From positions 3,547-67,546 of the forward strand of contig JBJMQQ010000121.1 in assembly GCA_045802645.1 (NCBI GenBank): 64,000 bases of DNA. Direction: 5' to 3'. The stretch comes from Polyangia bacterium (GTDB taxonomy: Bacteria > Myxococcota_A > Polyangia > Fen-1088). The translations under genes were made by a program, and so were the position numbers. Under the pieces are notes generated by a model, which had not been told where the DNA came from, did not search any database, and saw nothing but the letters and a program-made list of their open reading frames with translations. Of the stretch, positions 9,017 through 54,741 are shown piece after piece; position 1 is the stretch's first letter; every line of letters starts with the position of its first letter.

Positions 9017-9937
9017 ATGACCCGCGCGAACCGATCCTTTTCAGCGGTGACACTGGCGCTGGCCCTGGCCACGTCGGTCGCCGGCCGTCCGGGCGCGGCG
9101 CGCGCCGAGAATAGACCGGCGCCCACCGCGGCGGACTTCGCCCGCCTCGAAAAAGAGGTCGCCGACCAGCGACAGCTGATCATCCAGATCATGCAGGCCG
9201 AGCAAGAGCGCTACGACATCCTGCTGAAGCTTCTTCAGGGGAGCACGGCTGGCCGTAGCGCCCCCGCGCTGCCCGCTGTGCCACCGGCGGCAGGCGCGCC
9301 CGCGACCGGCGCCCGCGACGAGGCGGCTTCCAGCGCCGCCCCGTCCAGGGAAGCGGCGACGGTCGGAACGGTGACCGGGCGCGTTCAGGCGCGGTCCGGG
9401 GCCCTCAAGGATGCGTACGTTTACGTCGATCTCATCCGGGGCTCGCCTGCGCGCGGCAAAACCCTGGAGATCAAGCAGAAGGACAAGCAGTTCTCACCCC
9501 GAGCGGCGGTGGTCCTGCGCGGGACCAGCGTCGTATTTCCCAACCTCGACCCCGTGTACCACAACGTGTTTTCGACCTCCGGCCGCAACAGCTTCGACCT
9601 GGGCGCGTACCGCGCGGGCGAGACGCCGCGGTCCGCGGTGCTGACCACGCCGGGCGTGGTGGAGGTCTACTGCAACATCCACTCGCGGATGAGCGCATCG
9701 ATCCTCGTCGCGCCCAGCCCGCTTTACGCCAAGGTGAACGCCGACGGCACGTTCCGGATCGACAACGTCCCGGTCGGCGCCCGCAAGCTGGTCGTCTGGA
9801 GCCCGGGCAGCAAGCCGGCCCAGCAAAAGGTCGACGTCTCGGCGTCGGGCGCCCAGGCCAGCTTCGTGCTGGATGACGAAGCGGCCACGACGCACCTCAA
9901 CAAGACCGGGCAGCCTTACGGGTCGTACAAGGAATAG
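9017..9937 (+). CDS. Secreted cupredoxin-like (type-1 copper site) protein with coiled-coil N-terminus and CarboxypepD_reg-like C-terminus
   Basis: GGAGG lies 5 nt before ATG 9017. Signal peptide [14 protein letters not shown]. Candidate T1Cu ligands: His in PVYHNVF and the C-x2-H-x2-M motif in [10 protein letters not shown]-terminal [23 protein letters not shown]. Confidence 0.7.
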
Positions 9938-9968
9938 ACACACAGGCGCGCAGCGCGAGATCCTGACG

Positions 9969-11870
9969 ATGAGCCGGCGAAACATCCTGGTCCTCTTGGT
10001 GCTCGCAGCGCTGGGCGCTGCGGCCCTGGCGGGCCGTGGGTTGGTGGCCTCGGCACGCCGGTCCGCGGATGCGGCGCCCGTGAAGCTGGAGGCGCGCGCC
10101 GCCGAGACGCGCGCTCACCTGGAGTCCGCGCTGGCCCACCTGACGCAACCGCTGGAAGAGCAGGCGGCGCGCGCGGCGGCGCTGCCCGAGCTCAAGGCGG
10201 CGCTTGCCGATCGCGTGGACGCGCCGACGCTGCTGGACCTGTTCGACACCGAAGACTGGTGGGCACCGTTCCGCGGCCGCGACGCCGCGATCGTGGTCGG
10301 CGGGCAGGTACTGGCCGCACGCGGCGACAAGCATCCGCCCTCGCCCGCCGGACTGGCGCCGTCGCCGTCCACGCCGCACGCCACCGCCGGCCTCCTCGCG
10401 GGTGCCCGCCCGCTGGTCGCGGCGGCGTCCAGCGTCGCGTTGCCGGACAATTCCGCATCGACCACGCTGCTGATCACCGCGCCGTTCGATCCAGCGCCGC
10501 TGGCGGCGAGCGCCGGCGTTCCGATCGCGCTTTCTGACGGGCGGCAGCTCTTGGCGGCGACGGGTGACGACGCACAGCGCGCGACGCTGGCGGGTCTCGC
10601 CGGCAAGGAGTCCAGCGCGGTCATCTCCGACGGCAGCGGTCTGCTCGCCGTCGCGCTGCGTGCCGGCCCCGGCCTGTGGCTCTGGGGGCTCGCCGCCCTG
10701 CCCGCCCCGGCTGCGCCCGTGTCGGCCGATCCCCGGCTCTGGTCGGCGTTGGCCGGTCTCCTGCTGCTGATGGCCGTGCTCGTGTGGACCACGCGGCGAC
10801 CGCGCGCCGCCGGCGAGGCGGCGGCGCCGTCCGAGCCCAGCACGCCACCCGCGATCTCATCACCGACGGTCGAGGCACCGGCTCCCACCTCCGAGCCGCG
10901 CATGCCCGCCACGATGATCCTGGGGCCGACGGGCGGCGGCGACGACGCGACGATGTTCGGGCGCTACCGCCTCTTGCGGCGCCTCGACGGCGGCGGGATG
11001 GCCGACATCTACACCGCCGTGCTGGAGGGGGCCGAGGGTTTCCAGCGCACGTTCGTGATCAAGCGGCTGCGCCCCGAGCTGACGCGCAGCCGCGCCGCCG
11101 TCGAGCAGTTCATCGACGAAGCCCGCCTGGGCTCGGTGCTGGCCCACCCGAACATCGTTCCGGTGTTCGACTTCGGCAAGGTCGGCGACGAGTACTTCAT
11201 GGCCGAAGAGTTCGTGGTCGGGCGCGACATCACGCGCCTGCTGCAGCGGCAGCTCGACATGAACAGCCATCCCCTCGGCGAGCGCTTGATGCTCTACGTG
11301 GCGCACGAGGTGCTGGAGGCGCTGACCTACGCCCACGGATTGGCGGGCGCCGACGGCAAGCCGTTGGGGATCGTCCACCGCGACATCTCCCCCGGCAACG
11401 TCATGGTGACTGCCCGAGGCGACGTGAAGCTCCTGGACTTCGGCATCGTCAAGGCGACGGGTCGCGTCTCGCGGACCGAGGCGGGGGTGGTGAAAGGGAA
11501 CGTGTCGTTCATGTCGCCCGAGCAGGCGCGCGGCGAGAGCGTCGACGCGCGCTCGGACCTGTTTTCGCTGGGGCTCGTCATCTACTACGGCCTGACCAGC
11601 GAGCAGATCTACCGTGCCTCCGGGACATTCGAGCAGCTGCTGCAAGCGGCGGCCGGCCCCAAGCCCGAGGACCTGAGCAAGGTGGCCGCCCTCCCCGCCG
11701 CCTCGCGCATCCTGGCGCGCGCGCAGGCGATCGATCCGGCCCAGCGCTACCAGAGCGCCGCCGATTTCGCCGCGGACCTCGCGCCACACGTGGCGGGCGG
11801 CCGGCTCGACGCCGCGGCCCTGATGCACGGCCTCTTCGGCGACGAGCTCCGCGCCGCCTCGGCCGGCTAA
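9969..11870 (+). CDS. Hanks-type Ser/Thr protein kinase with N-terminal extracytoplasmic sensor region and C-terminal kinase domain
   Basis: In-frame ATG 9969 ([22 protein letters not shown]) within ORF 9873-11870. A second TM helix is [17 protein letters not shown]. Kinase motifs are [24 protein letters not shown] and SPEQ. Confidence 0.85.
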
Positions 11871-11957
11871 CTTCCGACGCCCCTCGAATAAGACGAGTTC
11901 GCGGAAAACATCCGGAACCCGGAGAATGAAGCGCCAGGACGCCACGGACGCCAGGAA

Positions 11958-12043: not shown

Positions 12044-13054
12044 CTAGGCCGCGGCGAAGTAGCGGAGGGCGTTTTCACCCAGCAGGCGGTCGAGCGCGGG
12101 AGGGCGCCAGCCGCGGCGCCAGAGCAACTCGGTCAGGCGCGGCAGGTCGGCGGCGTCCCGGAGCCCGCGCGGTAACGGCATGAAGCCGTCGAAGTCGGAG
12201 CCCAGCGCGACGCACCCTTCGCCGCCGACGTGGGCGATGTGCTCGATGTGATTGGCGACCGCCTCCAGCGAGCAGAACGCGCCACCCAGATAGGACGCCA
12301 CGAAGATCACGCCCACGACGCCGCCCCTCTGGGCCAGCGCGCGGACCTGGTCGTCGTCCAGGTTGCGGGCATGCGGGTGGACGCCGGCCGCGCCAGAGTG
12401 CGAGGAGAACGGAGGCCGCTCGGCCGCCTCGACGATGTCCCAGAAGGTCTTGCGGCTGGCGTGCGACACGTCGAGACGGATGCCGGCCTGGTCGCACGCC
12501 CGGACCAGCGCCCGCCCGCGATCGGTCAGCCCGCCGTCGCGCGCCGCGGGCGTCCGGCACGACGCGCCGGCCGCGCTGTCCCGCTCCCAGAGCGGCCCCA
12601 GGAACATGACGCCCGCTTCGGCCAGGCGCGCGACACCGGCCTCGGGATCGTCGTCGATCGCGTAGCTCCCCTCGACGCCCAGGAACAGGGCCAGGCGGCC
12701 GGAGGCGCGCGCGGCGCGGATTCCGGCGGCGTCGCGAGCCAGCACCAGCGCATCGGGGTGGGCCGCCGCCAGCGCCCGCGCCTTGTCGAGCTGCCGCCAA
12801 AACCGGCGGTCGCGATCGACGCGAAACCCGGCGAACATGAGGCAGCCGAGGGCGTCGATGCCGCCGCGCCGGATGCGCGGCAGATCCAGGTCCAGGCGCA
12901 GCGGGTTGTAGTACGTGGCCGGCGCGTGCTCCTTGCCGATGTCGTAGCGGCTGTGGGTCAGCTTCGTCAGCAGGTCGTTGTGCAGGTCCAGCACCAGCGC
13001 GTCGGCATGCGCTGCCGCAGCGTCCGCGCTGACCTCCACCGGGTAACCGCGCAT
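12044..13054 (-). CDS. Membrane (renal-type) dipeptidase, peptidase family M19
   Basis: Family-typical motifs LDLHNDLL (HxD zinc ligands), GGIDALG, DVSHAS and ALGSDFDG. It starts 4 nt after the upstream kinase stop. Confidence 0.85.
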   Translation of the reverse strand: MRGYPVEVSADAAAAHADALVLDLHNDLLTKLTHSRYDIGKEHAPATYYNPLRLDLDLPRIRRGGIDALGCLMFAGFRVDRDRRFWRQLDKARALAAAHPDALVLARDAAGIRAARASGRLALFLGVEGSYAIDDDPEAGVARLAEAGVMFLGPLWERDSAAGASCRTPAARDGGLTDRGRALVRACDQAGIRLDVSHASRKTFWDIVEAAERPPFSSHSGAAGVHPHARNLDDDQVRALAQRGGVVGVIFVASYLGGAFCSLEAVANHIEHIAHVGGEGCVALGSDFDGFMPLPRGLRDAADLPRLTELLWRRGWRPPALDRLLGENALRYFAAA

Positions 13055-13058
13055 CGGC

Positions 13059-14507
13059 CTACGGCGCGGCGAACGGGTTCTTGAGCTCGGCGGGCGTTGC
13101 GGGATCGCCGGGCACGTCGATCTTGCGGTGCAGGGGGTCGACCTTGTCGGTCTCGCCGTGATGACGGCGGGCGCGGGCCGGCTGGTCCGCCGACGCCGCC
13201 TCGGGCGCGGGCACCTCCGCCGCGGGTGGATTCGCGGCGGGCGGCGCGACGACCGGCTTTTCGGCGGGCACTGGAACGAGCGACGCCTTTTCGACCGGCG
13301 GCGCCACGGCGGGTTTCTCGGCGACCCCGCGCGTGGGCGCCGGACCGCCGCGCAGCGCGAGCACGGCGACCGAGACGATCACCAGCGCCGCGACCGCGCC
13401 CAGGGCCAGCTTGGCGCGCGCACCCAGCCCGCCGCCCGGCGCTTCGGGGCGTGACGGCCGTTCGTCGTCGAACGTGCCGACGGGCGGCGTCGCCGCGATC
13501 GCCGTCAGCGAATCGCGCACGCCGGCGTTCGCCTCGGCGAGCGACGGGTACTTCAGCGTCGCGCCCGGCAGCGCCGGCGTCGGGATGCGCGTCACCGTCG
13601 AGGGCTCGAACGGCTGCCCGCCCGCCGCCCCGATGGCGCGATAGAACTCGTCCATGTCGGCCCACCGCTTGTCGCGATCCTTCTCGAGCGCGCGCAGGCA
13701 GACGGCCTCGACGTCCGCCGGGATCTGCAGGTCGGGACGCCGCTGGCGCAGCGGGATGACCGGCTCCAGCAGGTGCTTGGTCAGGATGCCCATGAAGCTG
13801 TCGGCGTGGAACGGAACCACGCCCGTCAGCATGTGGTACATGATGCAGCCCACCGCGTAGACGTCCACGCGGTGGTCGGGCGGTTGCCCCTGCGCCTGCT
13901 CGGGCGACATGTACTCGGGCGTTCCGAAGATCATCCCGGTCTGCGTCAGCCGCGGGCCGTCGTTGTTATCGGCGCTGACGACCTTCGCGATGCCGAAGTC
14001 CAGCACCTTCACGAAATCCGGGCGCCCCTCGCGCTGAACCAGGAAGATGTTCTCCGGCTTCATGTCGCGGTGGATGATCCCCTGCCCGTGCGCGGCCCGC
14101 AGCCCCTTGGCGATCTGCATGAGGATGCCGCGCGCGCGTCCCCAGGGCAGCGTGCGCTCGGTTCGCAAAGCGCGCCCCAGGTCCTGCCCCTCCAGGAACT
14201 CCATCGCGATGTAGACCAGACCCTGGCCGGTTTGCCCGAAGTCGGAGATGTCGATGACGTTCTCGTGGCCGATGCGCGAGGCGCTCTTCGCTTCTTGCAG
14301 GAAGCGCGCGACCAGCTCGGGACGGCGGCTCAGATCGGCGAAGAGGACCTTCAGCGCGACGCGCTTGCCGATGACCGCGTGCTCGGCCTGGTACACCGCG
14401 CCCATGCCCCCCTCCCCCACCTTCCGGACGATGCGGTAGCGCTCGGAGACGACCGTCCCGAGCAGCGGATCTTCCGCGGCCGGGGGGTTCGCGTCACCGA
14501 CAGGCAT
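13059..14507 (-). CDS. Membrane-anchored Hanks-type Ser/Thr protein kinase
   Basis: YRIVRKVGEGGMGAVY (Gly loop), VALKVL, HRDMKPENIFL, DFGIAK, SPEQ. TM helix LALGAVAALVIVSVAVLAL is followed by a Pro/Ala-rich tail. Confidence 0.9.
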   Translation of the reverse strand: MPVGDANPPAAEDPLLGTVVSERYRIVRKVGEGGMGAVYQAEHAVIGKRVALKVLFADLSRRPELVARFLQEAKSASRIGHENVIDISDFGQTGQGLVYIAMEFLEGQDLGRALRTERTLPWGRARGILMQIAKGLRAAHGQGIIHRDMKPENIFLVQREGRPDFVKVLDFGIAKVVSADNNDGPRLTQTGMIFGTPEYMSPEQAQGQPPDHRVDVYAVGCIMYHMLTGVVPFHADSFMGILTKHLLEPVIPLRQRRPDLQIPADVEAVCLRALEKDRDKRWADMDEFYRAIGAAGGQPFEPSTVTRIPTPALPGATLKYPSLAEANAGVRDSLTAIAATPPVGTFDDERPSRPEAPGGGLGARAKLALGAVAALVIVSVAVLALRGGPAPTRGVAEKPAVAPPVEKASLVPVPAEKPVVAPPAANPPAAEVPAPEAASADQPARARRHHGETDKVDPLHRKIDVPGDPATPAELKNPFAAP

Positions 14508-14600: not shown

Positions 14601-17600
14601 TTAGGCGGAGAGAGCTTGGGCGAGATCGTCGTACGTGTCGGACACCGCGAAGCGCAGCAGCGCCACGGCCTCCGGGTTCACGGCGACGGCCTCCAGCGTC
14701 AGACCTCCGTCGCGCGGCACCAGCGACGGCGAGAGCTCGAGGACCACGGACAGGGCGGCGGGCAGGTCGGAGCACGCCAGCAGACCGGCCACGTTCGCGC
14801 CGTCCCGGGTCGCGGCGAGCAGCGCGGGGAGATCGAAAGAGCCCGCGCTCTCCACCGCGTAGGGCATGGCCACCTGCTTGAGCTTTCGCGACAGCAGCCG
14901 ATCCAGCCGCGCCGCCTCGGCGTCAGCCAGCCCCTCGCGCACCGCCTCGTGCTGATAGTCGTGGACGAACTGCCGGATGATGCCGACCAGCAGCGCGCCG
15001 GCCTCCTCGGCCGGGACGGCCAGTAAGAGGTCCAGATGCGTCGCCGAAAGACGCAGCGTGCGCCCCGCCGCAAAGCGCAGCGCCGCCGGCCCCAGCGTCT
15101 CCAGCGCGTCGCCGACCACGATCGCCGGCGGATCGCCCGGCTCCGCGCGCAACAGGATGGGCCCCGACGCGGCGGCTGCCTGCCGGACGTAAAGGTCGAA
15201 CGAGCCGACGCCCAGCTCCGCGGCGACGACGTCGAACGCCGGTCGGGGCGGGGCGCCGCGCGGGCGCCGGTCGGCGCGCGTGAGCCCGTGGCGCGCGAGC
15301 CGCTGCGCGAGGTCCGCCCCCGTGGGCCGCAGCGAAGCACCCAGCAGCCGCAGGACGTGACGCACGCCCGACGGGAGCTCCGGCGGGAAGGCGCGCTCGT
15401 CGAGCTCCGGCTGGCGCAGCCCCGCCAGGCTGCGGGCGGGCGCCTCGGGGACGCGCTGCCCGGAAATCGCGGCCAGCAGCTGGGCGGCGGCGTGGGCGGC
15501 GTGCGGGCGCTCGCGCAGCACCAGCAGCGTCGCCAGCGCGCGAAGAGTTTCGGCGCGCAAACCGCCCGGGCGCACCAGGTCGTGGCGCAGCAGCCCCAGC
15601 GCCCGATCGAGCACCCCGCGGCGGCCGGCCGGATCGCGCGCCCGCTCGAGCTGCTGCACCAGCGCCGAGACGGCCTCGACGTCGCGCGGGGCCTCGTCGA
15701 ACGCGCGGCGCAGCTCGGCGCCCGCCCGCGACAGGTCACCCACCTGCGTCAGCACCTCGCCCAGGCGGACGCGCGTCCGGTGGCGCCGCGTCGGATCGGG
15801 CTCGCAGGCGACCAGGCGCTCCGTCACGGGCAGCGCCCGCTTGGTCTCACCCTCGCGCAGATAGAGGTCGGACAGCGCGCGTAGCGCCTCCAGGTTCTGC
15901 TCGTCGACGGCCAGCGCGCGTTCGTAGGCCGCCGCGGCGCGCTTGGGATCCGGCACCTGCGTCGAATAGATCTGACCGAGCCGCAAGAAGATCCGGCAGC
16001 GCGTGCCCGCGTCGCGCTCGACGACGGCGCGGCGCAGGAAGATCTCGCCGGCCTCGGCCCACTCTTGCCGGTCCCACAGCAGCTCGGACAGGGCCTCCAG
16101 CGCGCGCGGGTGTTCGGGCTGCTTGCGCAGCACCGCCTCCAGCTCGCGCCGCGCGCCATCCGGATCGCCCAGCGCCCGCGCCAGCAGCTCGGCGCGCGCG
16201 AGCCGCAGCGACGTGACCTCGAACGGGTTCTGCGCCACCTCGATGCGGGCGGCCAGCGCCGCCGCCAGCGCCCGCGCGTCCTCCTGCTCCGCCAGCAGCG
16301 AGCGCAGGCGCTCGAAGGCCGCCTCGTGGGTCGGGTCGGCGGCCAGCGCCGCGCGCAGGTCGGCCAGCGCGCGCGCCTGCGCGGGGGGCTGCGCCTCCAG
16401 CGCCAACGCGGCGGCCAGCAACAGCGCCCGCACGCGATGTTGCGCCAACACCAGGCACGAGGCTTCGACCTCGGCGGCGGCGGCGGTCGCCAGCACGTCG
16501 CCCGAACGCGCGGCCGTCGTCCGCAGCGCCCGCGCCGCCGGCAAGAACGTCGGGTCCGCCCGCAGCGCCGCCCGCCGGCTCTCGGCGGCAGCTTCGGGGT
16601 CGCCCAGCTCCTCCTCGACACGCGCCCGCGCCGTCCAGATCGACGCGGCCGCGCGGCGGTCCGACTCGGCCGCGCCCAGCGTGGTGATGGCCGCGGTCAG
16701 CGCCCAGCGCCGCAAGGCGGGGTCGGTCTGGGCGCTGCCGACGACCTGTCCCAGATCGCGCAGCGTGGCCCGCGGCGCGTTGGCTCCCGTCGTGGCCAGC
16801 CGGGCCGCAGCCGCCGCCAGCTGCTCCGCGCGTTCGGGCTGGTCGTGCGACTCGGCGAGCGCGACGGCCACGGCCAGCGTCGCGGGTCCGGCCGCGCCCT
16901 CATGCGGCGGCGACTCGGCGAGCCCGTCGATGAGCTCGGTCCAGTTGTTTGCCGCGGCCGTCGCCGCGAGGCGTCCCAGCGCAGCGGCGGCGCGGGCCGC
17001 GTCGGCGTCGGCGGGCCCCGCCAGCAGCTCGGGCGGCAGGGGCGGCGTTTTTCCGTTGGACCGCGCGTCGAACCGTCGCGCGTCCGGGGCAAAACGCCCG
17101 GAGGCCAGCGTCCGGAACAGCTCGCGCGCGCCGGCCGCGTCACCCCTGATGAGGCGGGCCTCGGCGACAGCCAGAACCTGCGCGTCATCGCGCTCCGGGT
17201 CGTGCCCGCCGAGCGGCAGCGACGCGGCGGCGGCTGGACCGCGTGGCTCGCCCAGCGCCACCGCGCAGCGCAACGCGATTGCGCGAGCCTCTCGTGTGAC
17301 GGGATTGCCGTCACCACCGGCCAGCAGCTCTTGCGCCGCGCGTAGCGCGGACGTGTGGTCGCCGCTCAGCGCTTGCAGGCTGACCGCCGCCAGCGAGGCC
17401 AGCCGCGCGAGCGCCGGAATGGCCCCGTCGTGCCCTGCGCGCGCCAGCGCGGCGGCGGCACCCGCCGTGTCGACCGACCGCTCGGACAAGTAGATGGGGA
17501 GCGCCAGCGGATGCGCCGGGGCGATCCGCAGCGCCTCCTGGAACGCGATCGCGCGCGCGCCGCTGTCCGACGCAGGCATCGACGACGCGTGCCGCAGCTC

Positions 17601-19466
17601 GACCCAGGCTCGCAGCGACGGATCGCGCGCGGCCGTCGTGGCGGCGTCCAGCGCGGCGCTCAACGCCTCGCGCTGGCCGGCCCGCTCGGCCAGTCGGCCG
17701 ACCGCTTCCGCGCCCAGCGCGCGCGCCGCCGGCGACAGCTTGCGGTCGCCGGGAAGCTCCAGCGCTTCCAGTGCGCGCGCCGGATCCGCGGGCGCCAGCT
17801 TGGCGGCGGCGCACGCGCGCAACGGCGCCTCCAGCGCGCCGCCGCGCCAGATCTCGGCGCCGTACGCCAGCACCGCCGACGCATCGGCGCGCCGGCCGGC
17901 GCGTGCGTCTTCACCCGCGACCTCCCAGAAGACGGCGGACGTCGGCGCCGCCTCCAGCGCCGTTTGCAGCGCGGCGCGCGCGGTCAGCTCGCTGCCGGCC
18001 TGCCCGCGCGCCTCGGCCAGCAACAACGCCGCAGCCGCGCGCCGGCCGTCGTCACCCCGGAGCCAGGTTTCCAGCGCCAGCGCGCGCGCGGCGGGATCGC
18101 GTCCGTCGGCGGCCATCGCTTCGGCGATCAGGGCCAGCGGCGTCGCGTCCGGCGCGGCCTCGACCGCGGCGGACAGCAGCGCGGAGGCGGCGCCGTCCTG
18201 CCCCTGGCGCCGCAACGACTGCGCCTCGACCCAGGTCAGCGTCGCCGCCGCGGCCGGTGAGCCGGCGCCGGCCCGCGCCCGTTCCAGCGCCGCCGGGTCC
18301 AGCGGCACCCCCAGCGCGGCATCCAGCTCGATCACGTCGCGAGCCGCCGCGAGCGAAGCCGGCTGCTGGTCCAGGAAGGCCCGGGCGGCGGCGAAATCTC
18401 CGCGCGCGCGCGCCAGGCTGGCACCCCAGCGACGGACGGCCTCGGTGACGGCCGAAAACACGGGCAACGCGGGGAGCACCTCGGCCAGCTTCTTTTCGGC
18501 GTCGCGCCCCGTCGCGCGCGCCGCGCCGCCCAGGGCAGCCAGCGGAATCCCCGGCTCGGCCGGCGCCAGGCGGCGCGCCGCTGCCAGGTACGCCGCCGCC
18601 GCGTTCGCGTCGCGCGCCGTCAGCGCGACGCGTGCCGCCTGTTCGATGAACGCCGCGCCAATCGCGACAGGCGTCCCCGCGCCGGCGCTGCCGGCGCTTG
18701 GCTCGCGGCCGGGGCTGAGCGCACGGCCTGCAGCCCCCAGCGCGCCGGCCGCGGCCCCCGCGCCCTCGCGCAGCGCCGCCTCCGCGAGAGCGATGGCGCG
18801 TGCGGGTCCAGGTGGAATCGCGTCGACCGCAGCGGCGGGCAAGCTCCCGCCGCGGGCCAGCGTCCATTCGGCCGACAGCCCGCCATAGAACGCGCGCTCC
18901 TCCGGGTTGCCGGCCGCCGACGCGAGGCGCGCCCAGAGCGCGTGGGCTTCGTCGAGCTCGCCCAGGCTCTCGGCCAGCCGCGCGCGGGCCCGCAGCGCCT
19001 CGGGCGCATGGGGCGACCGGGCCAGCGCCTCGTCGTAGCCGCGCGCCGCTCCCGCCGCGTCGCCCGCTGCTTCCGTCGCGCGGCCGGCCGCCACCAGCAA
19101 GGCCGCCGCCTCGTCAGGTGTCGCCGCCAGCGCGCTCTCGTCCCGATAAAGATGCGCATCCGCCCGCCACTCCTCGGGCGCGGGTGGACCGGCCAGCGCC
19201 TGCTCCGGCACGCTGACCAGCGCCTCCATCCCCGCCAGCCAGATGTCGGCCTCCATCTCGGGCAGCGTCGGCGCGAACAGCACCACGGGCTCGCTCGACG
19301 CGCTCGCCTGCGGATCCAGATCCGCCAGCGCCGGCACGTTGGGATCCGTGGGCGGCGCGTCGTCGGAGAACTCCTCCTCGAAGAACTCCTCCTCGAAATC
19401 GTCCTCGATCTCGATCGTGGTCACTTCACCGGGGTCGCCCGGGCGGCGGGGTCCGCGTTCGCTCAC
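14601..19466 (-). CDS. Giant (1,621 aa) TPR-like repeat protein, acidic N-terminus, conserved non-TPR C-terminal domain (paralogue B)
   Basis: Single uninterrupted ORF whose start overlaps the upstream stop by 4 nt. TPR units include AAAAYERALAVDEQNLEALRALSDLYLREG. N-terminus EVTTIEIEDDFEEEFFEEEFSDD. C-terminal motifs DRLLSRKLKQ and ALLRFAVSDTY. Confidence 0.85.
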   Translation of the reverse strand: MSERGPRRPGDPGEVTTIEIEDDFEEEFFEEEFSDDAPPTDPNVPALADLDPQASASSEPVVLFAPTLPEMEADIWLAGMEALVSVPEQALAGPPAPEEWRADAHLYRDESALAATPDEAAALLVAAGRATEAAGDAAGAARGYDEALARSPHAPEALRARARLAESLGELDEAHALWARLASAAGNPEERAFYGGLSAEWTLARGGSLPAAAVDAIPPGPARAIALAEAALREGAGAAAGALGAAGRALSPGREPSAGSAGAGTPVAIGAAFIEQAARVALTARDANAAAAYLAAARRLAPAEPGIPLAALGGAARATGRDAEKKLAEVLPALPVFSAVTEAVRRWGASLARARGDFAAARAFLDQQPASLAAARDVIELDAALGVPLDPAALERARAGAGSPAAAATLTWVEAQSLRRQGQDGAASALLSAAVEAAPDATPLALIAEAMAADGRDPAARALALETWLRGDDGRRAAAALLLAEARGQAGSELTARAALQTALEAAPTSAVFWEVAGEDARAGRRADASAVLAYGAEIWRGGALEAPLRACAAAKLAPADPARALEALELPGDRKLSPAARALGAEAVGRLAERAGQREALSAALDAATTAARDPSLRAWVELRHASSMPASDSGARAIAFQEALRIAPAHPLALPIYLSERSVDTAGAAAALARAGHDGAIPALARLASLAAVSLQALSGDHTSALRAAQELLAGGDGNPVTREARAIALRCAVALGEPRGPAAAASLPLGGHDPERDDAQVLAVAEARLIRGDAAGARELFRTLASGRFAPDARRFDARSNGKTPPLPPELLAGPADADAARAAAALGRLAATAAANNWTELIDGLAESPPHEGAAGPATLAVAVALAESHDQPERAEQLAAAAARLATTGANAPRATLRDLGQVVGSAQTDPALRRWALTAAITTLGAAESDRRAAASIWTARARVEEELGDPEAAAESRRAALRADPTFLPAARALRTTAARSGDVLATAAAAEVEASCLVLAQHRVRALLLAAALALEAQPPAQARALADLRAALAADPTHEAAFERLRSLLAEQEDARALAAALAARIEVAQNPFEVTSLRLARAELLARALGDPDGARRELEAVLRKQPEHPRALEALSELLWDRQEWAEAGEIFLRRAVVERDAGTRCRIFLRLGQIYSTQVPDPKRAAAAYERALAVDEQNLEALRALSDLYLREGETKRALPVTERLVACEPDPTRRHRTRVRLGEVLTQVGDLSRAGAELRRAFDEAPRDVEAVSALVQQLERARDPAGRRGVLDRALGLLRHDLVRPGGLRAETLRALATLLVLRERPHAAHAAAQLLAAISGQRVPEAPARSLAGLRQPELDERAFPPELPSGVRHVLRLLGASLRPTGADLAQRLARHGLTRADRRPRGAPPRPAFDVVAAELGVGSFDLYVRQAAAASGPILLRAEPGDPPAIVVGDALETLGPAALRFAAGRTLRLSATHLDLLLAVPAEEAGALLVGIIRQFVHDYQHEAVREGLADAEAARLDRLLSRKLKQVAMPYAVESAGSFDLPALLAATRDGANVAGLLACSDLPAALSVVLELSPSLVPRDGGLTLEAVAVNPEAVALLRFAVSDTYDDLAQALSA

Positions 19467-22400
19467 GTCCCCTCCCCTCGGCCCGCGGCGCGGCGGACGG
19501 TCACGTAGGTTTCGCTCAGCGCAAACGCCAGCAGCTCACGGGCTGCCGCGTCGCCGGCGACGGCGGCCACACCACCAGCCCGCGCGATCGCCGCGCGCGC
19601 CGGATCGTCGATGACCAGCAGCGCAAACCGATCGGCGACCCGAAGGACCGCGGCGCGCCAGGCGTCCAGATCCAGCGGTTCGAACCCGAACCGCGAGACC
19701 TGCAGCGCCAGCGCCTTGCGATCCTTTCGGCTCAAGAGCCGACCCACATCGCGCAGCATCGCCTCGCCGGGCTTCGACAAACGCTTGGGGACCGTTCCAC
19801 CCGCCAGCACGGCTGCGCACGAAAACAGCGGGGCCAGATCGGCCGCGGGTTTCCGATCGAGGGCCCCCGCCCGCAACGCGAGCAGCGCCACCGCGCGGCT
19901 GGCCCAGAACGCCAGGTCTTCGGGGGCCGCCTTCACGTCGACCAGCAGCGCCGGCGGCGTGCGGTCGACCGGCGCGCACACAGGACCGGCCGACGCGCGG
20001 GCGAGCAGGTCCAGGCGCGGGATCTCCAGAGCCGCGGCGACCGGCCGCAACCACGCCAGCCGCGCGTCGGCGGCGGCCGGCAGCGGCTCTCCGGCGGGCG
20101 GCGGAAACAGCGCCTCCGCGACCTCCGCCAGCTGCGGCCAGATTTCGGCCGCGAAGCCACCGGCGTCCGGATCGGCCAGCGCTGCGAGCAGCGCCCGCGC
20201 CTGCTGCGGGGCGGCCGGGGGCGCCGATTCACCTCGCGGCGCAGCGACGCCCGTGGCCAGCGCGTGCACGCTGGCGACCGCTGCGTCGCCGCCGGCCTGT
20301 CCACCCCGGCGGCGCGCCTCGAGCAGCCACTCGCCGAGGCGCGCGAGCCGGCTGGCGTCCAGCGGGTTCGCCGCCAGAGCCTGTCGCAGGTCGGCGATCT
20401 CGCGCTCGATGATCTGCAGGGCCCCCCGCGCGTCCTGTCCCGCGTCGTAAAGGCCGGTCAGCAGCGCCACACCCGGTCCGAGCGGCGCCAGGTCGGCTGC
20501 CTGCCGGAAAGCAGCCGCAGACCCGGCCGCATCGGCCGCGCGGTCCCGCAGGATCTCCCCGATGCGGATCCAGCGCGACGCCTGCCCGGACGGGTCGGGC
20601 ACGCGCGCGGCGGCCGCCCGCAGCGCCTCGACGGCGCCCGCGACGTCTCCGACGGCGGACAGCACCTCCGCCAGGTGGTCCAGCGGGCGGGGATCGGCGG
20701 CCGAAACGTCGGCGGCGCGGCGCAGCGTGGTCACCGCACGCGCGACGTCGCCGCGGGCCGCGTAGCTGGACGCCAGCGCCAGGCGGGCGCCGCGGATCGC
20801 CTCTGACGTCTCGCCCGGATCCACCCCCAGCATCCCGCGGGACGCGGCGGCGTCCAACGCCAGCAGGTAGCGCTCGAGCCACTCCGACGCCGCGACCGCC
20901 TCACCGGCGGCCGTGGTGGCCTGCGCCAGCTCCCGAAGCGCGTCCAGGCTTTCTGGCTCGAACTTCAAGATCTGCTTGAAGTCTTCGAGAGCCCCCGCCA
21001 GCCCCCCTTCCACCGTGAGGCGGTGGCGGCCGCGCTCGAACAGCAGGGCCAGGCGCTCGCCCCGCGACAGCCGCGCGGCGGCCAGGCGGTACGACAGCAA
21101 TCCGTCCAGGATCTCCGCGCGCCCGGGCGCCTGCAGGTCGGAGCGCAGCAGCCGGTGGGCCTGCTCGTACGCGGGTGTGCTATCCGGATCCAGCTCGACG
21201 GCGCGCGACAGCGCCGCGATCGCGTCGTCGGCGCGGCCTGCCTGCTCGTACGCCGCGCCCGCGTCCACCAGCAGGCCGGCGGCCCGGTGTGGATCCCGCA
21301 CCAGCGCTCCCAAACGGGCCAGCGCCCGCGCCTCGCCCAGGGTGTCGCCCCCCGCCCGCGCGACCCGGCGCACGCCGCTCCACGCCTCGAGCCGCTGAGG
21401 ATCGGCGCCAATCACGCTTCCGTAGGCAGCCAGCGCCCCGGCCAGATCACCGGCCCGTTCGGCGTCCATCGCCGCCTCCAGGTGCAGGCCGATCGCCAGC
21501 GGCCCGCCGATCCGGCGGGCGCGCGCGCGACGGGGATCCGGGCGTGTCGCGGGCCAGGCGCTGCCCGCGGCGACCGGCAGGTCGGCGACGGCGGCCGCCA
21601 GACCGGGGGCGCGCGTCCGCTGCCACAGCGCCACCGCGACACGCTCGGCGATTTCGGGCCCTGCCAACCGGGCCCGCGCCACTGCGCGCGCGTAAAGCGC
21701 CAGCACCTCCGGCGTCGCTGATCCTGACGCCTCCTCCAGCGCCGTCGCCATTGCCGACAGGGCCTCGGCCGCGGCCCCGGCGTCCTGCCCACGCACGCCG
21801 GCCAGGAATTGCCAGAGGACGGCGTCCGCCCGCGCCGACGGCGTGTCGCCATCCGTGCTGGCGGGCGAAGGAACGGCGACGCCGGCCGCCAAGCTGCTGA
21901 GCGCCGCTTCGCGCGCGGCGGCCGCGGCGATAGCCGGCTCCTCGGCGCAGGCCTGCGCCAGCGCCGAGAGCGCCTGGCCGAGCGCACCGCGCTCCGCCGC
22001 CCGGTCGCCGGCAGCCAGGCGGAACAACGCCAGCGCGGCGGCGGGCGCCGTCTCGCCCAGCGGAGACTCGACGATGGCGCGCCGGAACGCGTCCGCGGCG
22101 CCCGCCGGATCGCCGGCCCGGGACAACGCCTCGCCGTAAGCCAGCAGCACGTTGGCGGGCTCCGCGATCGTGCCGTCGCCGAGGCGCGCCTCCTCGGAAA
22201 GGACCGCGATCTCCAGGATCGCGTCGCCCGAGCGCCGCGCCAGCTGGTCACTCCAGGCGCGCGCGACGGGGTCCCCCTCCGCGCGCAGCGGCGTCAGCGC
22301 GGCCACCGCTTCCGGGTACGCGCCCGCCTCGGCGTGGTGATGCGCCAGCCGAAGCCGCAGCGCGCGCACGCGTTCAGGCGACGCGTCGGTCTGCGCGGCG

Positions 22401-24511
22401 AGCTCGGCGGCAACCACCGCGGCACGCGCCTGAGGCGTCGCAGCGGCCCGCTCGAGCGCGGAGCCCGCCAACCCGGCTGCGTCCGCCGGGATCAGCTCGG
22501 TCAAAAGCGCGCTCCCCCGCGCGACCGCGGACGGGTCGGGGCTGGCGGCCAGCGTGCGCCCCGCAGCCAACCGGAGCGCAATCGCCGCGTCGGGGTCCTT
22601 GGCCAGGTCCGCCATCGCCAGCAGGTTGCCGGCGCGATCGACGGTGCTGAGGCGCGCGTCTGCCGCCGCTTCCAGATCGAAGTCGTGCAGGCGAGCGCGC
22701 GCGGCCAGGCTTCGCGGCCGCAACACGACCAGGCGCCGCTGGTGCGGGATGGCGCGGCCAGGCTGGCCCATCTGATCGGCGTAAAGGGCCACCAGCGTCT
22801 CCCGCGCCCAGCGCTCCAGCTCGCGGTCGGCGTCCGTCGCGCCTTGCGTGTCGGCTTGTGTTTGCGACTGGGCCAGCACCCCCAGCGTGTGCTCGAGGAT
22901 CCCTGCGGCTTCTTCGATTCGCCCGGCCGCGATGGAGAGCGCGGCCAATGCCTGCGCGGCGGGACGAGCGTGTCGCAACGTGGGGTCCAGCGCCATCGCG
23001 CGGCGATACAGCTCGGCGGCCGCGTCGGCCTGCCCCAGCGCGGCAGCCCGCACGGCGCCGGCGGCGATCAGCGCGTGCACGCGCGCCGGTCCATCGTCGG
23101 CGGCCACGGCCTCCGCTTCGCCGGCCAGCGCCTCCGCCAGCGCAACCGGGTCGTGGTTGCGCACGGCGATCGCGAGCTGGGCGGCCCGCAGATCGACGCG
23201 CGATGGGCGGCAGGCCAGCACGCGTGGCTCTTCCAGCAGCGCGGCTGCCTCGGTCGCCTCGGCCGGGCCGGAGATCTCGGCGAACAGCAGCGCGACGTCG
23301 ACAGCATCGTCATCGCGCGCCGCAGCCGCGATGAAGTCCCGCACGATCTCGGCGGCCGCCCCGCCCCGATCGAGCGCCAGCGACAGCTCGACTCGTTCGG
23401 CGGCGACCGACGGGTGGGCCGGGTCGAGGCGCGCCGCTTCGTCGAGCGCCTCGAGGGCCGCTTGCGGCCGCGACTGCGTCCGCCGCAGCAGGTACGCGCG
23501 CTCGCGCCACAGCGCGACCGCCAGACCACGGTCCGCGGCGGCGACTCTTTCGCCCAGGACCGCCAGTGCCCGATCGGCGACGTCCGGTGGCGCCGCGTCG
23601 CGGGTCAACCCGTCCAGCTCCGCCAGCAACGTGGCGAGCGGGCTGCCCTCGTCGCCGCGCGCGAGCTCCCCTTCGAGCGCGGCCAGCGCCCGTGCGGCGC
23701 CGTCGGCCCGGGCGGCCTGCCAGGCCCGCGCCTCTTCGACGACCAGCGCGCCGCGCCGCGGCGCCGCGTCGGCGATGCGCGACAGCCCGCCCAGCGCCTC
23801 GGCGCGTAGCCCCGCGTCGTTGCGCCTGACGCCCGCCAGCCACAGCGCGAGCAGCGCGCCGGGGTGGTCCGCGACGACCGCCAGCGCCTCACGGTAGGCG
23901 GCCAGCGCCTCGTCGGCCCGGTCTAACCGGTCTTCCAGTAACCGCCCGCGTGCGACCAGCAGATCGGCGCGGCCAGTCGGGTCGCTGCCGGTCGGGCGCG
24001 CGCGCGCCGCCTCGGCGTGGACCTCGGCCAGCTCCGCCCAGCGCCGGGCCCGACCCAAGAGGCGCCGCAGCGTCCAGAACGCCACCACCGAGGCGGGGTC
24101 GCCCGCGAAAGCCGCCCGCGCGGAGGTCAGGGCCAGATCATCGCCGGCGGGGTTGTTCTCCTGACGGCCCAGCCGCTCTTCGAGCTCGGCCACCTCGACC
24201 AGCAGCCCGGCCCGGCGTGCGCCGTCGCCCGCGGCCGCTTCCGCGCGAAACAGCTCGATCTCGGCCCGCGGATCCTCCTCGGCCGCCTCGACGATCGGCG
24301 GCCGCAGCTCGACGACGTCGACGATGTCCAGCAGCTCGGAGGCGCCGGCGTCGCCGATCAGCCCGGGCTGTGTGCGGTCCGTGTCCTCACGGCGGACTGT
24401 CTGGGGAACAGCGCCGCGCAGATCGGTATCGGCAGGAGCCGGGGGCGGCCCTTCCACGTCGAATTCGATCTCGACCACCTCTTCGTCATCGCCGTCCGGT
24501 GCTGGTGGCAT
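19463..24511 (-). CDS. Giant (1,682 aa) TPR-like repeat protein, acidic N-terminus, conserved non-TPR C-terminal domain (paralogue A)
   Basis: Single uninterrupted ORF. TPR units include AIAALSRAVELDPDSTPAYEQAHRLL. N-terminus DDEEVVEIEFDVEGPP. C-terminal motifs GRLLSRKDRK and ELLAFALSETY. A strong promoter match lies just upstream. Confidence 0.85.
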   Translation of the reverse strand: MPPAPDGDDEEVVEIEFDVEGPPPAPADTDLRGAVPQTVRREDTDRTQPGLIGDAGASELLDIVDVVELRPPIVEAAEEDPRAEIELFRAEAAAGDGARRAGLLVEVAELEERLGRQENNPAGDDLALTSARAAFAGDPASVVAFWTLRRLLGRARRWAELAEVHAEAARARPTGSDPTGRADLLVARGRLLEDRLDRADEALAAYREALAVVADHPGALLALWLAGVRRNDAGLRAEALGGLSRIADAAPRRGALVVEEARAWQAARADGAARALAALEGELARGDEGSPLATLLAELDGLTRDAAPPDVADRALAVLGERVAAADRGLAVALWRERAYLLRRTQSRPQAALEALDEAARLDPAHPSVAAERVELSLALDRGGAAAEIVRDFIAAAARDDDAVDVALLFAEISGPAEATEAAALLEEPRVLACRPSRVDLRAAQLAIAVRNHDPVALAEALAGEAEAVAADDGPARVHALIAAGAVRAAALGQADAAAELYRRAMALDPTLRHARPAAQALAALSIAAGRIEEAAGILEHTLGVLAQSQTQADTQGATDADRELERWARETLVALYADQMGQPGRAIPHQRRLVVLRPRSLAARARLHDFDLEAAADARLSTVDRAGNLLAMADLAKDPDAAIALRLAAGRTLAASPDPSAVARGSALLTELIPADAAGLAGSALERAAATPQARAAVVAAELAAQTDASPERVRALRLRLAHHHAEAGAYPEAVAALTPLRAEGDPVARAWSDQLARRSGDAILEIAVLSEEARLGDGTIAEPANVLLAYGEALSRAGDPAGAADAFRRAIVESPLGETAPAAALALFRLAAGDRAAERGALGQALSALAQACAEEPAIAAAAAREAALSSLAAGVAVPSPASTDGDTPSARADAVLWQFLAGVRGQDAGAAAEALSAMATALEEASGSATPEVLALYARAVARARLAGPEIAERVAVALWQRTRAPGLAAAVADLPVAAGSAWPATRPDPRRARARRIGGPLAIGLHLEAAMDAERAGDLAGALAAYGSVIGADPQRLEAWSGVRRVARAGGDTLGEARALARLGALVRDPHRAAGLLVDAGAAYEQAGRADDAIAALSRAVELDPDSTPAYEQAHRLLRSDLQAPGRAEILDGLLSYRLAAARLSRGERLALLFERGRHRLTVEGGLAGALEDFKQILKFEPESLDALRELAQATTAAGEAVAASEWLERYLLALDAAASRGMLGVDPGETSEAIRGARLALASSYAARGDVARAVTTLRRAADVSAADPRPLDHLAEVLSAVGDVAGAVEALRAAAARVPDPSGQASRWIRIGEILRDRAADAAGSAAAFRQAADLAPLGPGVALLTGLYDAGQDARGALQIIEREIADLRQALAANPLDASRLARLGEWLLEARRRGGQAGGDAAVASVHALATGVAAPRGESAPPAAPQQARALLAALADPDAGGFAAEIWPQLAEVAEALFPPPAGEPLPAAADARLAWLRPVAAALEIPRLDLLARASAGPVCAPVDRTPPALLVDVKAAPEDLAFWASRAVALLALRAGALDRKPAADLAPLFSCAAVLAGGTVPKRLSKPGEAMLRDVGRLLSRKDRKALALQVSRFGFEPLDLDAWRAAVLRVADRFALLVIDDPARAAIARAGGVAAVAGDAAARELLAFALSETYVTVRRAAGRGEGT

Positions 24512-24535: not shown

Positions 24536-24565
24536 ATTATCACGGCCGCCGGATCAGCATGTCAA
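24536..24565 (-). promoter_or_regulatory. Near-consensus sigma-70-type promoter for the giant TPR operon
   Basis: On the minus strand: TTGACA (24565-24560), 18 nt, GATAAT (24541-24536), ending 24 nt before ATG 24511. It sits in the 78-nt divergent intergenic region. Confidence 0.5.
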
Positions 24566-24589: not shown

Positions 24590-25633
24590 ATGATAGGTCG
24601 CGCCTCCGGCGGCCGGCGATCGCGGCGGCTGGGAGCCAGAACCGAGAGGCCCGACCTGCCGAACCTGCTCGTCCCCATCGACCTGCGCGACGGCGTGCCG
24701 ACGCCGCCGTCACTGTTTGCGCTCGCGGAGACGCGGCGGGTGGCGCGCGTGGCGGGCGCCACCGTCTACGCGATCGTGCTGGCGGAACGTGACCTGTCAG
24801 CCGAAACGATCGCGCAGCTCGGGCGGGCGGGCGCGGACAAGGTGCTGCTGTGTGAGGGCTCCTCGCTGGGGGCGCCTCCTCTGGAGGCGACCCACGGGAC
24901 GGCGTTGCTGGCCGCCGTCGAGCGGGTCTCGCCGCTGCTGGTCCTGTTCCCGGCGGGCGGGGCCGGCGTTTCCCTGGGCCCCAGTCTGGCCGCCCGACTG
25001 GGTGCGGCGTTCGCTGGCCCCGCGGATCTGGAGGTCAGCGAGGTCGAAGACGCCCTCCCCGACGGCATTGGACGGGTTTTCGTGCGTTTCTGGAGCGCCG
25101 GACGCACCGCGTACCGGCGACTCGACCCCGTCGACGTCGAGCGTCCGATCGTCGCCATCTTGCCGGCTGGCGGCGCGGCGGCGGCCATCGGGAGCCCGTC
25201 GATCGACCACGACGTCATCACCTGTACGCCACCGCTGGCGCCGGGCGTCGACACGTTGGCGTCGGACGCCGACGACCGGGCAGCGATCGCGCTGGCTCGC
25301 GTTCTGGTCGTCGTCGATCCCGCGTTCGGCGGCGGCGCGGTCGAGACTTTGCGCGCGGCGGCTCCGGCCGGTGTGGCCGTGGCCGACGGGGTGGCCGACG
25401 CCTCGTCCGTCGCCGCCGCCACGCCGGAGATGATGATCGTGGTCGGCGGGTCGCCGCCGCCCATCGGGACACCCCGGGCGCGGGTCGCGCTGGTCGCGAC
25501 CGACGCCGGCGCAGAGGAGAGCGGCCGGGGGGTCGACGTCGTGTGGCGCGTGCCGCCAGAAATGAGCGCCGACGTGATGATCCAGCAGCTCGCCGACGCT
25601 CTGCCGGGCCTGGCCGTGGAGACGGCGTCATGA
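24590..25633 (+). CDS. Electron-transfer-flavoprotein alpha-subunit-like protein with degenerate FAD-binding region
   Basis: In-frame ATG 24590 within ORF 24017-25633. The N-terminal domain pattern (LLVPIDLRDG...SLFALAETRRVA...VYAIVL...GADKVLL) is ETF-alpha-like. The C-terminal segment MMIVVGGSPPPIGTP replaces the canonical ...YIAxGISGxxQH... signature. Confidence 0.65.
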   Translation: MIGRASGGRRSRRLGARTERPDLPNLLVPIDLRDGVPTPPSLFALAETRRVARVAGATVYAIVLAERDLSAETIAQLGRAGADKVLLCEGSSLGAPPLEATHGTALLAAVERVSPLLVLFPAGGAGVSLGPSLAARLGAAFAGPADLEVSEVEDALPDGIGRVFVRFWSAGRTAYRRLDPVDVERPIVAILPAGGAAAAIGSPSIDHDVITCTPPLAPGVDTLASDADDRAAIALARVLVVVDPAFGGGAVETLRAAAPAGVAVADGVADASSVAAATPEMMIVVGGSPPPIGTPRARVALVATDAGAEESGRGVDVVWRVPPEMSADVMIQQLADALPGLAVETAS

Positions 25634-26307
25634 ACGTGCTCGTCTGCTTGCGTACGACCGCGCGCACGACCTCAGAGTTGCTCGACGCCGCGGACGCGCG
25701 GGCGCTGGCCCACGCGCTGCCGCTGCGGGGCGCCGGCCACACCTTGACCGCGCTCTACGTGGCCAGCGCCGCCGAGGCGGCCCCCGTCGCCGCGCGCCTG
25801 TCGCCGCACGTCGACCGTGCCGTGCGCGTCGTCAGCGACGAGGTTGCGGCGGCCGACTTTCACACGTGCGGCCAGATGCTGGCGATGGCGATCCGGCGCC
25901 TTGGCGCCGACGTCGTGCTGGCGCCCATTCAGGGCGAAAACGAAGCCGCCGGCGGAACACCCGCCGCGATCGCGCGTCACCTGGGCGCGCGCTACGTTCC
26001 GTTCGTCGAGGAGATCGCAGGCCTGGACGACGCCAACGCGGAGGTGCTCGTCCGCGGCGGCGGTCGCAAGCGCCGGCTGCGTGTGGCGTTTCCGGCCGTG
26101 ATCGGCACCGCCCCTGGCGCCGCGACGCTCCCGCCTGCGTCCGCCGGCGCCGACCCCACGCCCGTCGAGACGATCGCGCTCAACGATCCGGAGGCGACGG
26201 TCGTCCGGCGTCGCACCGAGCTCCTGGGCCGCCCCGAAAACGCCTCACGCGGAACGCAAACGGTGACTTCGGCCGCCGCACTGATCGCCGCGCTCAAGCG
26301 CGCCTAG
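25630..26307 (+). CDS. Electron-transfer-flavoprotein beta-subunit-like protein
   Basis: ATGA overlap with the previous stop. MNVLVCLR..., DRAVRVVSDE..., ADFHTCGQMLAMAIRRLGADVVLAPIQGENEAAGGTPAAIARHLGARYVPFVEEI and RLRVAFPAVIGT follow the ETF-beta fold pattern. Confidence 0.65.
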   Translation: MNVLVCLRTTARTTSELLDAADARALAHALPLRGAGHTLTALYVASAAEAAPVAARLSPHVDRAVRVVSDEVAAADFHTCGQMLAMAIRRLGADVVLAPIQGENEAAGGTPAAIARHLGARYVPFVEEIAGLDDANAEVLVRGGGRKRRLRVAFPAVIGTAPGAATLPPASAGADPTPVETIALNDPEATVVRRRTELLGRPENASRGTQTVTSAAALIAALKRA

Positions 26308-38735: not shown

Positions 38736-38761
38736 CTCGCGCAGGGTCGGAGGCGAGCTAG
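38732..38761. terminator. Bidirectional hairpin whose arms contain both convergent stop codons
   Basis: CTAGCTCGC (38732-38740) is the exact reverse complement of GCGAGCTAG (38753-38761), with a 12-nt loop. TAG 38733-38735 ends the + gene and CTA 38758-38760 ends the - gene. Confidence 0.4.
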
Positions 38762-40230: not shown

Positions 40231-40487
40231 GCCTGGCTCCTCTGCTCGGCTTTGGGGATGGTTGGGGACGGTTTCGACGTTTGTCCCGCAGGACTAAAGT
40301 CGGCGCGCGCAATGCGGCAAAAACAGGCGCCGTAGTCGGGTGAGCGGACCGGATTATCGGCAGCACCGCAGCAAGAGTCAATGTTTCCACCCGAAGTCGA
40401 CGCCATGGAAGTGTGCCGAATCGGACAAAAATTTGACCACAATCTCACCTGGGCTTACATGTAGGACAACACCCTCAGGAGGGGCCG

Positions 40488-54707: not shown

Positions 54708-54741
54708 CCCCGAAAGGTACCACCGGCCGGTTGGTGGGCTC

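Follow-up and report, generated by a model that had tools for sequence, protein, structure and literature searches.

We analyzed a 64,000-nucleotide stretch of contig JBJMQQ010000121.1 (forward-strand positions 3,547 to 67,546) from the Polyangia bacterium assembly GCA_045802645.1, hereafter the window, and focused on two adjacent minus-strand genes, A and B, which together span ~10 kb and encode a pair of giant helical-repeat proteins. A first-pass annotation made from the DNA letters had reported both open reading frames (ORFs), and an ORF check reproduced their coordinates and lengths. The local GC content of the window is 66–78%, and sliding GC3/GC2 periodicity (GC content at third versus second codon positions) follows a single unbroken coding frame along each ORF, with a frame switch exactly at the A/B junction; because this periodicity is unbroken, we take A and B to be genuine genes. 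The possibility that they are artefactual long ORFs in GC-rich DNA was ruled out by the frame periodicity together with sequence conservation. GC content and codon usage of the A-B locus resemble those of the surroundings. The features of the two genes are as follows (positions in the window; aa, amino acids; TPR, tetratricopeptide repeat).

19463–24511, minus strand: gene A, 1,682 aa, ATG start, A-type giant helical-repeat protein
14601–19466, minus strand: gene B, 1,621 aa, GTG start, B-type giant helical-repeat protein
19463–19466, minus strand: 4-nt stop/start overlap GTGA (acGTGAgc) of the TGA of A with the GTG of B, with GGGGAGGGG 5 nt upstream
24536–24565, minus strand: promoter-like site TTGACA-18 nt-GATAAT, ~25 nt upstream of the ATG of A, 11/12 consensus matches
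24332–24511, minus strand: N-terminal acidic segment of A, aa 1–60, MPPAPDGDDEEVVEIEFDVEGPPP, 16 Asp+Glu versus 4 Lys+Arg
19332–19430, minus strand: N-terminal acidic aromatic motif of B, aa 13–45, EVTTIEIEDDFEEEFFEEEFSDDAPPTDPNVP, a Phe version of the family motif
20708–21274, minus strand: segment of A with Pfam-significant TPR units, aa 1080–1268 (TPR_1, TPR_8, TPR_11, TPR_2, TPR_14)
15447–16646, minus strand: segment of B with TPR signatures, aa 941–1340 (Pfam TPR_16, TPR_19, TPR_8, TPR_14)
19463–20050, minus strand: C-terminal domain of A, ~aa 1488–1682, A-type version of a shared alpha/beta domain
14601–15236, minus strand: C-terminal domain of B, ~aa 1411–1621, consisting of a helix, three short strands, a long helix and a helical bundle

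The GGGGAGGGG element before the B start reads as a GGAGG-type sequence. The promoter-like site is a consensus match only, although 0.1 such sites are expected per shuffle of the region.

To define the relationship between A and B, we compared the two proteins directly and as profiles. Plain BLASTP found only a weak colinear match in the TPR region (E = 0.023) and missed the C-terminal domain. Profile-profile comparison (hhalign), for which we used orthologue alignments recovered from related loci, aligned the full-length proteins over 1,508 colinear columns (A 2–1678 with B 9–1621) at 99.8% probability and E = 8.5e-29, even though A and B are only ~25% identical. The last ~290 aa, which are free of TPRs, matched on their own (97.9% probability, E = 4.7e-13), compared with E = 0.35 for a reversed-profile control, whereas the first 60–70 aa appeared unrelated (E = 0.22). 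Judged from these profiles, A and B are full-length colinear paralogues, their acidic N-terminal tails excepted, and they derive from an ancient tandem duplication of a giant TPR-type gene ending in a dedicated ~200–290-aa alpha/beta domain. The paralogy proposed in the first-pass annotation is thereby confirmed; its expectation that similarity would lie in the two termini held for the C-terminal end and failed for the first ~60 aa, with the similarity instead running the full length of the proteins.

The profile match with its reversed control also indicates that the C-terminal domain shared by A and B is real, and the motifs by which it had been recognized (RLLSRK… and LLxFAxS(D/E)xY) fall in aligned columns of the A and B profiles. 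AlphaFold2 models of the last 339 aa of each protein were of high confidence (pLDDT 91.2 and pTM 0.91 for B; pLDDT 89.4 and pTM 0.88 for A) and have an order of elements in common: capping helices, a helix, three short strands, a long helix and about eight further helices. Foldseek comparison of both models with the PDB yielded no fold match (best E = 0.67), and sequence searches of PDB chains with both C-termini as single sequences and with the family profile returned nothing. Pfam found nothing at E ≤ 5 in 24 diverse C-terminal domains, and the domain was likewise unmatched in NCBIfam and PADLOC. These empty searches agree with the earlier impression that the domain is unlike any characterized family, and we describe it as a new, confidently predicted fold with no counterpart in Pfam, NCBIfam, PADLOC or the PDB. 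Positions conserved at ≥90% across 92 B-type domains are occupied mostly by hydrophobic residues, Gly or Pro; the others are three Arg, one Asp and one Ser, with no catalytic-type constellation among them. Such conservation is more in keeping with a binding or structural role than with catalysis.

Both proteins are members of the TPR superfamily, with Pfam TPR models above the gathering cut-off in both A (TPR_1, 39.9 bits against a cut-off of 27.8; TPR_8, 39.2 against 25.7) and B (TPR_16, 39.2 bits against 32.7; TPR_19, 38.7 against 25). Pfam TPR matches in B lie at aa 144–176, 941–973 and 1087–1266, and the stretch at aa 941–1340 is the best conserved part of the repeat body in a conservation profile that shows A and B to be conserved along their full length. 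An NCBIfam scan of A and B gave matches to TPR families only, all below threshold, among them a partial match of PEP_TPR_lipo to B aa 1100–1340; in four distant full-length family members, Pfam detected only TPR models. Significant TPR matches span ~200–400 aa per protein and the rest is rich in Ala, Leu and Arg, so that the more than 1,000 aa of TPR-type repeats claimed at first are borne out for limited stretches that pass the Pfam cut-offs, while the remaining ~1,000 aa of each protein may form helical repeats, as composition and the partial Pfam matches suggest.

Both proteins contain ~25% Ala, are rich in Leu, Arg and Glu, and carry a net negative charge. A sequence scan of A and B found no Walker A/P-loop, HExxH, signal peptide or convincing transmembrane helix, and there are four Cys residues in A and six in B, consistent with the reported absence of a P-loop, metal cluster, transmembrane helix and signal peptide. 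Nor did Pfam match an AAA or NACHT domain in either protein, and the P-loop of STAND/NLR-like (Avs-type) proteins is missing. A and B look cytoplasmic and non-enzymatic, as the first-pass annotation had it, an appearance supported by these features and by the residue conservation across the B-type domains.

The acidic N-termini differ between the two proteins. The first 60 aa of B contain 19 Asp+Glu versus 3 Lys+Arg, and the B-type family has an N-terminal motif of the approximate form W-x3-4-phi-x1-2-W-[DE]-xx-[LF], of which DDWAAAIDEWDANL is an example. The core motif occurs within the first 130 aa of 71 of 91 B-type representatives, compared to 2/91 and 9/91 in control windows, and its double-W version in 52/91, compared to 0/91 in controls; only 2 of 21 A-type proteins carry the core motif. 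In the window's clade the motif takes a Phe version, with DDFEEEFFEEEF in B of the window and LFDELFEDAPPTDP among relatives. The A-type proteins of the clade begin instead with MPPxxDGDDEElVEIdvEieGPPP, which is conserved in close orthologues. Thus both N-termini are strongly acidic, as noted originally, but the strand-like motif that they seemed to have in common is a matter of composition, and the B-type motif is largely missing from A-type proteins.

We next consider how far the A-B arrangement is conserved. The window proteins were compared with related loci by tblastn, and loci with sufficient flanking sequence were counted. Wherever the flank allows, A is followed directly by B, and no locus with a single member was found; the usual gene order is A, B, kinase, M19 dipeptidase. 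A orthologues upstream of B show 28–86% identity, and in the distant members L043–L047 (~30% identity or less) a 1,600–1,900-aa giant precedes the B-type gene. A scan with distant domains recovered further distant pairs among metagenome loci. In every pair scored against the profiles, the upstream gene is A-type and the downstream gene B-type. Among 21 intact pairs, all with the A-type gene first, the junction measures −4 nt in 5, −1 nt in 10, 0 to +2 nt in 4, and +15 or +19 nt in 2. The 4-nt overlap in the window, which had been read as a signature of translational coupling, is therefore one instance of a near-zero junction that is conserved far outside the window (19/21 between −4 and +2 nt). 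The expectation that orthologues would not occur singly also held, in that they are paired in all sampled relatives with enough flank and only remote homologues occur alone.

One metagenome contig carries A and B as a single 3,850-aa ORF, in which an internal A-type domain is followed by a linker with the B-type N-terminal motif and then by a full B-type protein. The fusion junction reads cleanly in frame without sign of a frameshift, although this is a single observation. The fusion locus (L048) is syntenic with the window, with genes for DUF2520, HEAT, PQQ, IscS, MnmA, RNase III and CCA preceding the fusion and M19 following it. The combined length of A and B in the family is ~3,300–4,300 aa.

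Close and moderately distant orthologues are always paired, but the wider domain family is not. Single giants of ~2,700 aa with the same C-terminal domain are present at nine remote metagenome loci (L083, L086, L088, L092, L096, L104, L107, L111 and L114); they lack both an acidic tail (their N-terminus reads MPTVREYEAAL…) and a partner giant, and their neighbors include RluD-like, Vut_1, Lon, RecA and CinA genes. These singletons may represent the unduplicated form of the family. At three of the distant paired loci, a Lyase_aromatic gene (histidine/phenylalanine ammonia-lyase-type) lies on the opposite strand upstream of the A-type gene; in L044 and L046 it adjoins that gene, and in L047 it is two genes distant.

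To assess the distribution of the family, we searched a B-type domain profile, seeded with B of the window, exhaustively against 1.84 billion representative proteins. The search returned 614 clusters (50% identity) at E ≤ 1e-3 and 341 at E ≤ 1e-10, essentially all of them B-type because A-type domains score too low against the B-type profile. In 163 of 167 cases no more than 10 residues separate the end of the domain from the C-terminus, and complete host proteins are 1,500–2,500 aa long. The source names recovered were “hypothetical protein,” “TPR repeat protein” and, once (IMG), “predicted Zn-dependent protease,” and the named sources were metagenomes or metagenome-assembled genomes (MAGs) labeled Polyangia, Kofleriaceae, Myxococcales or Deltaproteobacteria. 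The source names recovered included no cultured or named organism, and no named Myxococcus protein was present among the matches or among 30 clusters whose names were checked. In a word-indexed protein search with a diverse alignment, every match was a fragment of MAG or metagenome origin.

A scan of one genome per GTDB species identified 40 loci with B orthologues, all in uncultured MAGs, the closest being 93–94% identical to B of the window. Of these, 39 carry a Myxococcota-type label or simply “uncultured proteobacterium”; the exception, L042, comes from an Actinomycetota bin. L042 (CAVOHB010000004.1) has the frameshifted A-B-kinase arrangement typical of Polyangia MAGs, and its label is probably a binning or labeling error. 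In L001, L002 and several ENA/MFD MAG contigs, frameshifts split the orthologous giants into 2–8 called genes. Because assemblies split the giants in this way, database matches to the family look like proteins of 200–600 aa, and the number of giant genes in these lineages will be underestimated by protein-family statistics.

Two further genes follow B in the same orientation and complete the co-oriented run.

13059–14507, minus strand: Hanks-type Ser/Thr kinase with one transmembrane helix (~aa 366–385), 93 nt downstream of B (Pfam Pkinase, 2.9e-48)
12044–13054, minus strand: M19 membrane dipeptidase, final gene of the run (Pfam Peptidase_M19, 2e-78)
11911–11923, minus strand: weak terminator-like hairpin 3′ of the M19 gene, suggestive only

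The number of terminator-like hairpins in the region equals the shuffle expectation. The kinase follows B in most close loci, but in five loci B is followed directly by M19 with no kinase between, in the ~33% identity group kinases lie several kb away, and in distant pairs the kinase is not adjacent. The kinase and M19 are thus a clade-level synteny block and not universal partners, and the notion of the kinase as a constant partner is not upheld. Divergently upstream of A lie genes for ETF beta and alpha, followed by CCA-adding enzyme, IscS-MnmA, a PQQ/BamB-like protein, a HEAT-repeat protein, DUF2520, NamZ and MutS; judged by their annotation, the genes flanking the pair are housekeeping genes, and Pfam annotation of the window revealed no mobile-element genes near the locus. 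Beyond the A-B pair the neighbors vary among distant loci, and only the pair is constant. The description of the locus as an undescribed system is therefore fair for the protein family, but the core is a two-gene pair among housekeeping genes and not a larger multi-gene system.

We favor, with moderate confidence, a model in which A and B are subunits of one obligate heteromeric cytoplasmic mega-scaffold. This model is suggested by the tandem duplication, the preserved order and coupling-type junction, the natural fusion, and the non-enzymatic, cytoplasmic character of both proteins. In such a scaffold, the tight junction would give coupled, roughly equimolar synthesis of A and B, and the two ~1,300-aa solenoids would expose extended series of grooves for binding peptides. 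The C-terminal domains would have a role in binding or assembly and no enzymatic one, and a candidate ligand for them is the acidic-aromatic N-terminal motif of the B subunit. Docking of the motif onto the C-terminal domain is suggested by the fusion, where the B motif lies directly behind the A domain, and by the mildly basic character of the A domain as opposed to the acidic tail of B. The neighboring membrane-anchored Hanks kinase could, in the clade of the window, anchor the scaffold to the inner membrane or regulate it there.

Several considerations weigh against this model. The case for a heteromer is drawn from gene arrangement and a single fusion contig, and docking of the motif onto the domain is speculation that draws on position and weak charge complementarity. 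Remote homologues occur as singletons of ~1,790 aa and ~2,700 aa, such that the domain family has no intrinsic need of a partner. The kinase link is limited to the window's clade, and kinases are very numerous in Myxococcota.

The singletons also count in favor of the possibility that A and B act independently, as separate scaffolds or adaptors with different clients, their adjacency being a relic of the tandem duplication. The low identity between A and B and their different N-terminal motifs are compatible with this possibility, yet order and near-zero spacing are kept down to ~28–33% identity, an in-frame fusion exists, and no one-member locus was seen where the flank was sufficient; we assign independent function a low probability. 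It is similarly doubtful that the pair is a split orthologue of GltI (AgmK, MXAN_4863), the gliding scaffold of the Agl-Glt focal-adhesion machinery, and binds FHA or GYF domains of Glt proteins. GltI is described as a 3,822-aa cytoplasmic TPR protein whose large C-terminal domain is mostly helical (PMC11761067); the sum of A and B and the fusion both approach this length, and gltI homologues have been reported throughout the Myxococcales, including Polyangia genera (PMC3169522). However, the gltI gene of M. xanthus is located beside gltJ within the G1 glt cluster (PMC3169522), unlike the A-B locus, where the neighbors in the window are ETF, CCA-adding enzyme, IscS-MnmA, kinase and M19 genes and related loci are alike. 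Neither the window nor ~15 related loci contain glt-like neighbors, FHA or TonB_C domains, or a GltJ-sized protein with recognizable domains near the pair; housekeeping genes are found instead. The lack of a named Myxococcus protein among the matches or the 30 name-checked clusters also argues against GltI. A more far-reaching variant, which we consider unlikely, is that A and B form a lineage-wide cytoplasmic super-scaffold or cytoskeleton-like polymer of uncultured Polyangia-type myxobacteria and not simply a split GltI. Here, each C-terminal domain would capture the N-terminal acidic W/F motif of the next subunit, giving head-to-tail A-B chains of ~100 nm that could organize membrane-proximal machinery under Ser/Thr-kinase control.

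Two other explanations invoke a different biochemistry or a different kind of locus. The C-terminal domain could be a degenerate zincin-like (M48/BepA-type) protease or pseudoprotease, making the giants TPR-protease-like chaperones or proteolysis regulators that work with M19. The order of helix, three strands and long helix resembles a minimal zincin core, an M19 dipeptidase is encoded downstream, one family member carries the IMG protease label, and the weak Foldseek matches of the B model include anthrax lethal factor, Ste24/ZMPSTE24, BepA and CapP. These matches are all at E ≥ 0.67, probability ≤ 0.16 and TM-score ≤ 0.21, however, with the best zincins at E 1.1–3.9, and the A model gives only an M32 metallocarboxypeptidase (E = 1.8, probability 0.06). 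HExxH is present at the equivalent position in 0 of 92 family members, an unaligned, non-conserved H[ED]xxH occurs in the last 330 aa of 2 of 92, invariant residues of the metal-ligand type are missing, Pfam and PDB profile searches find no peptidase family, and the IMG label probably stems from the TPR part. With no aligned HExxH, no metal ligands and no significant fold match, we dropped zincin metallopeptidase as the identity of the domain, and we judge the broader protease-like reading to be distinctly improbable. More improbable still is an anti-phage defense or other accessory island composed of a Ser/Thr kinase and large TPR sensors. The kinase does match PADLOC PD-T4-6 kinase models at E = 9e-92 and, more weakly, mad6/PglW-type models, but matches of this kind are generic to Hanks kinases and stay under the cut-offs of all NCBIfam families. 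For A and B, PADLOC gave nothing meaningful, the sole match being a 21-bit partial one to PrimPol, presumably made through a TPR segment, and there is no NTPase or nuclease effector domain. Moreover, the locus shows vertical conservation across the 40 species representatives, together with synteny of housekeeping genes, its composition and codon usage match the surroundings, and mobile-element genes are missing nearby. The protease-like, defense and independent-function readings are thus all less likely than the heteromeric scaffold.

Viewed as a scaffold, the A-B pair has relatives in kind among known TPR systems. GltI/AgmK of M. xanthus is a proposed scaffold of gliding motors (PMC11761067; PMC3169522). 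By description, the A-B pair resembles it in being giant, cytoplasmic, TPR-rich and of Myxococcota origin, with a distinct C-terminal domain and, in the fusion, a closely similar length (3,850 aa versus 3,822 aa). It differs in consisting of two genes rather than one, in lacking a glt neighborhood, and in that no GltG-FHA or GltJ-GYF partners were identified here. SgmX and other Myxococcus TPR polarity or motility adaptors are cytoplasmic, all-TPR proteins that serve solely as recruitment platforms (PMC7519303, PMC9811614). SgmX differs from the A-B pair in being a single protein with no paralogous partner. At ~1,060 aa, SgmX is not known to have an equivalent of the C-terminal alpha/beta domain. 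BepA and other M48 TPR-metalloproteases also combine a TPR array with a compact alpha/beta module and are among the weak, non-significant Foldseek neighbors of the B domain; BepA is a periplasmic protein of ~490 aa with HExxH, whereas A and B lack a signal peptide and HExxH, and their domains match no fold significantly. In the TPR lobe of the APC/C, the paralogous TPR superhelices of Cdc16, Cdc23 and Cdc27 stand side by side in one scaffold and bind short linear motifs. That complex is eukaryotic, with homodimers of each paralogue that are much shorter and have no such C-terminal domain, so the likeness is a functional analogy only. The Myxococcus multikinase-associated TPR proteins (Mkap) are small and scaffold Hanks-type Ser/Thr kinases, which recalls the kinase encoded directly downstream in the window's clade, although kinase linkage is not a family-wide feature of A-B.

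The A-B family is new, widespread and uncharacterized, and it is best seen as a probable two-subunit version of the giant TPR scaffold that carries a new C-terminal domain. The comparative evidence for a conserved A-B pair, as read from sequence, is solid: a ~10-kb pair is kept with its order and stop-start junction in at least 40 species-level lineages of uncultured Myxococcota. Myxobacteria are a bacterial model for cell polarity, motility and multicellularity, in which GltI and SgmX are central organizers. A two-subunit scaffold with a new domain is a reasonable candidate for the organizer of some large machine, cytoplasmic or associated with the envelope, in the Polyangia, whose lineages are poorly known. 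The family introduces no new principle, and its function will be hard to reach without a cultured host, but it offers two objects for direct study, namely a confident model of a new-fold domain and a short linear motif specific to the B subunit.

Several other genes of the window merit mention. Four sizeable ORFs show coding-type GC3 and matched no Pfam model at the thresholds applied: 7615–9003 (plus strand, 462 aa), 38758–40293 (minus strand, 511 aa), 41108–42340 (plus strand, 410 aa) and 52428–54851 (minus strand, 807 aa). A second Ser/Thr kinase gene (9873–11870, plus strand) is convergent to M19 and encodes a kinase domain at aa 367–587 behind a ~360-aa N-terminal part that lacks a Pfam match; many related loci have a weakly similar kinase in the same position and orientation. 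The ETF beta/alpha pair (24620–26307, plus strand) lies between the CCA-adding enzyme gene and A, and is found in L001, L002, L004 and L005 and absent from L048. Finally, an 845-aa ORF (28552–31089, minus strand) joins a class-V aminotransferase (IscS/NifS-like, aa 111–462) and a complete MnmA (aa 492–843) in one frame and may be a sulfur-donor/thiouridylase gene fusion; in L048, IscS and MnmA are separate genes with a 4-nt overlap.

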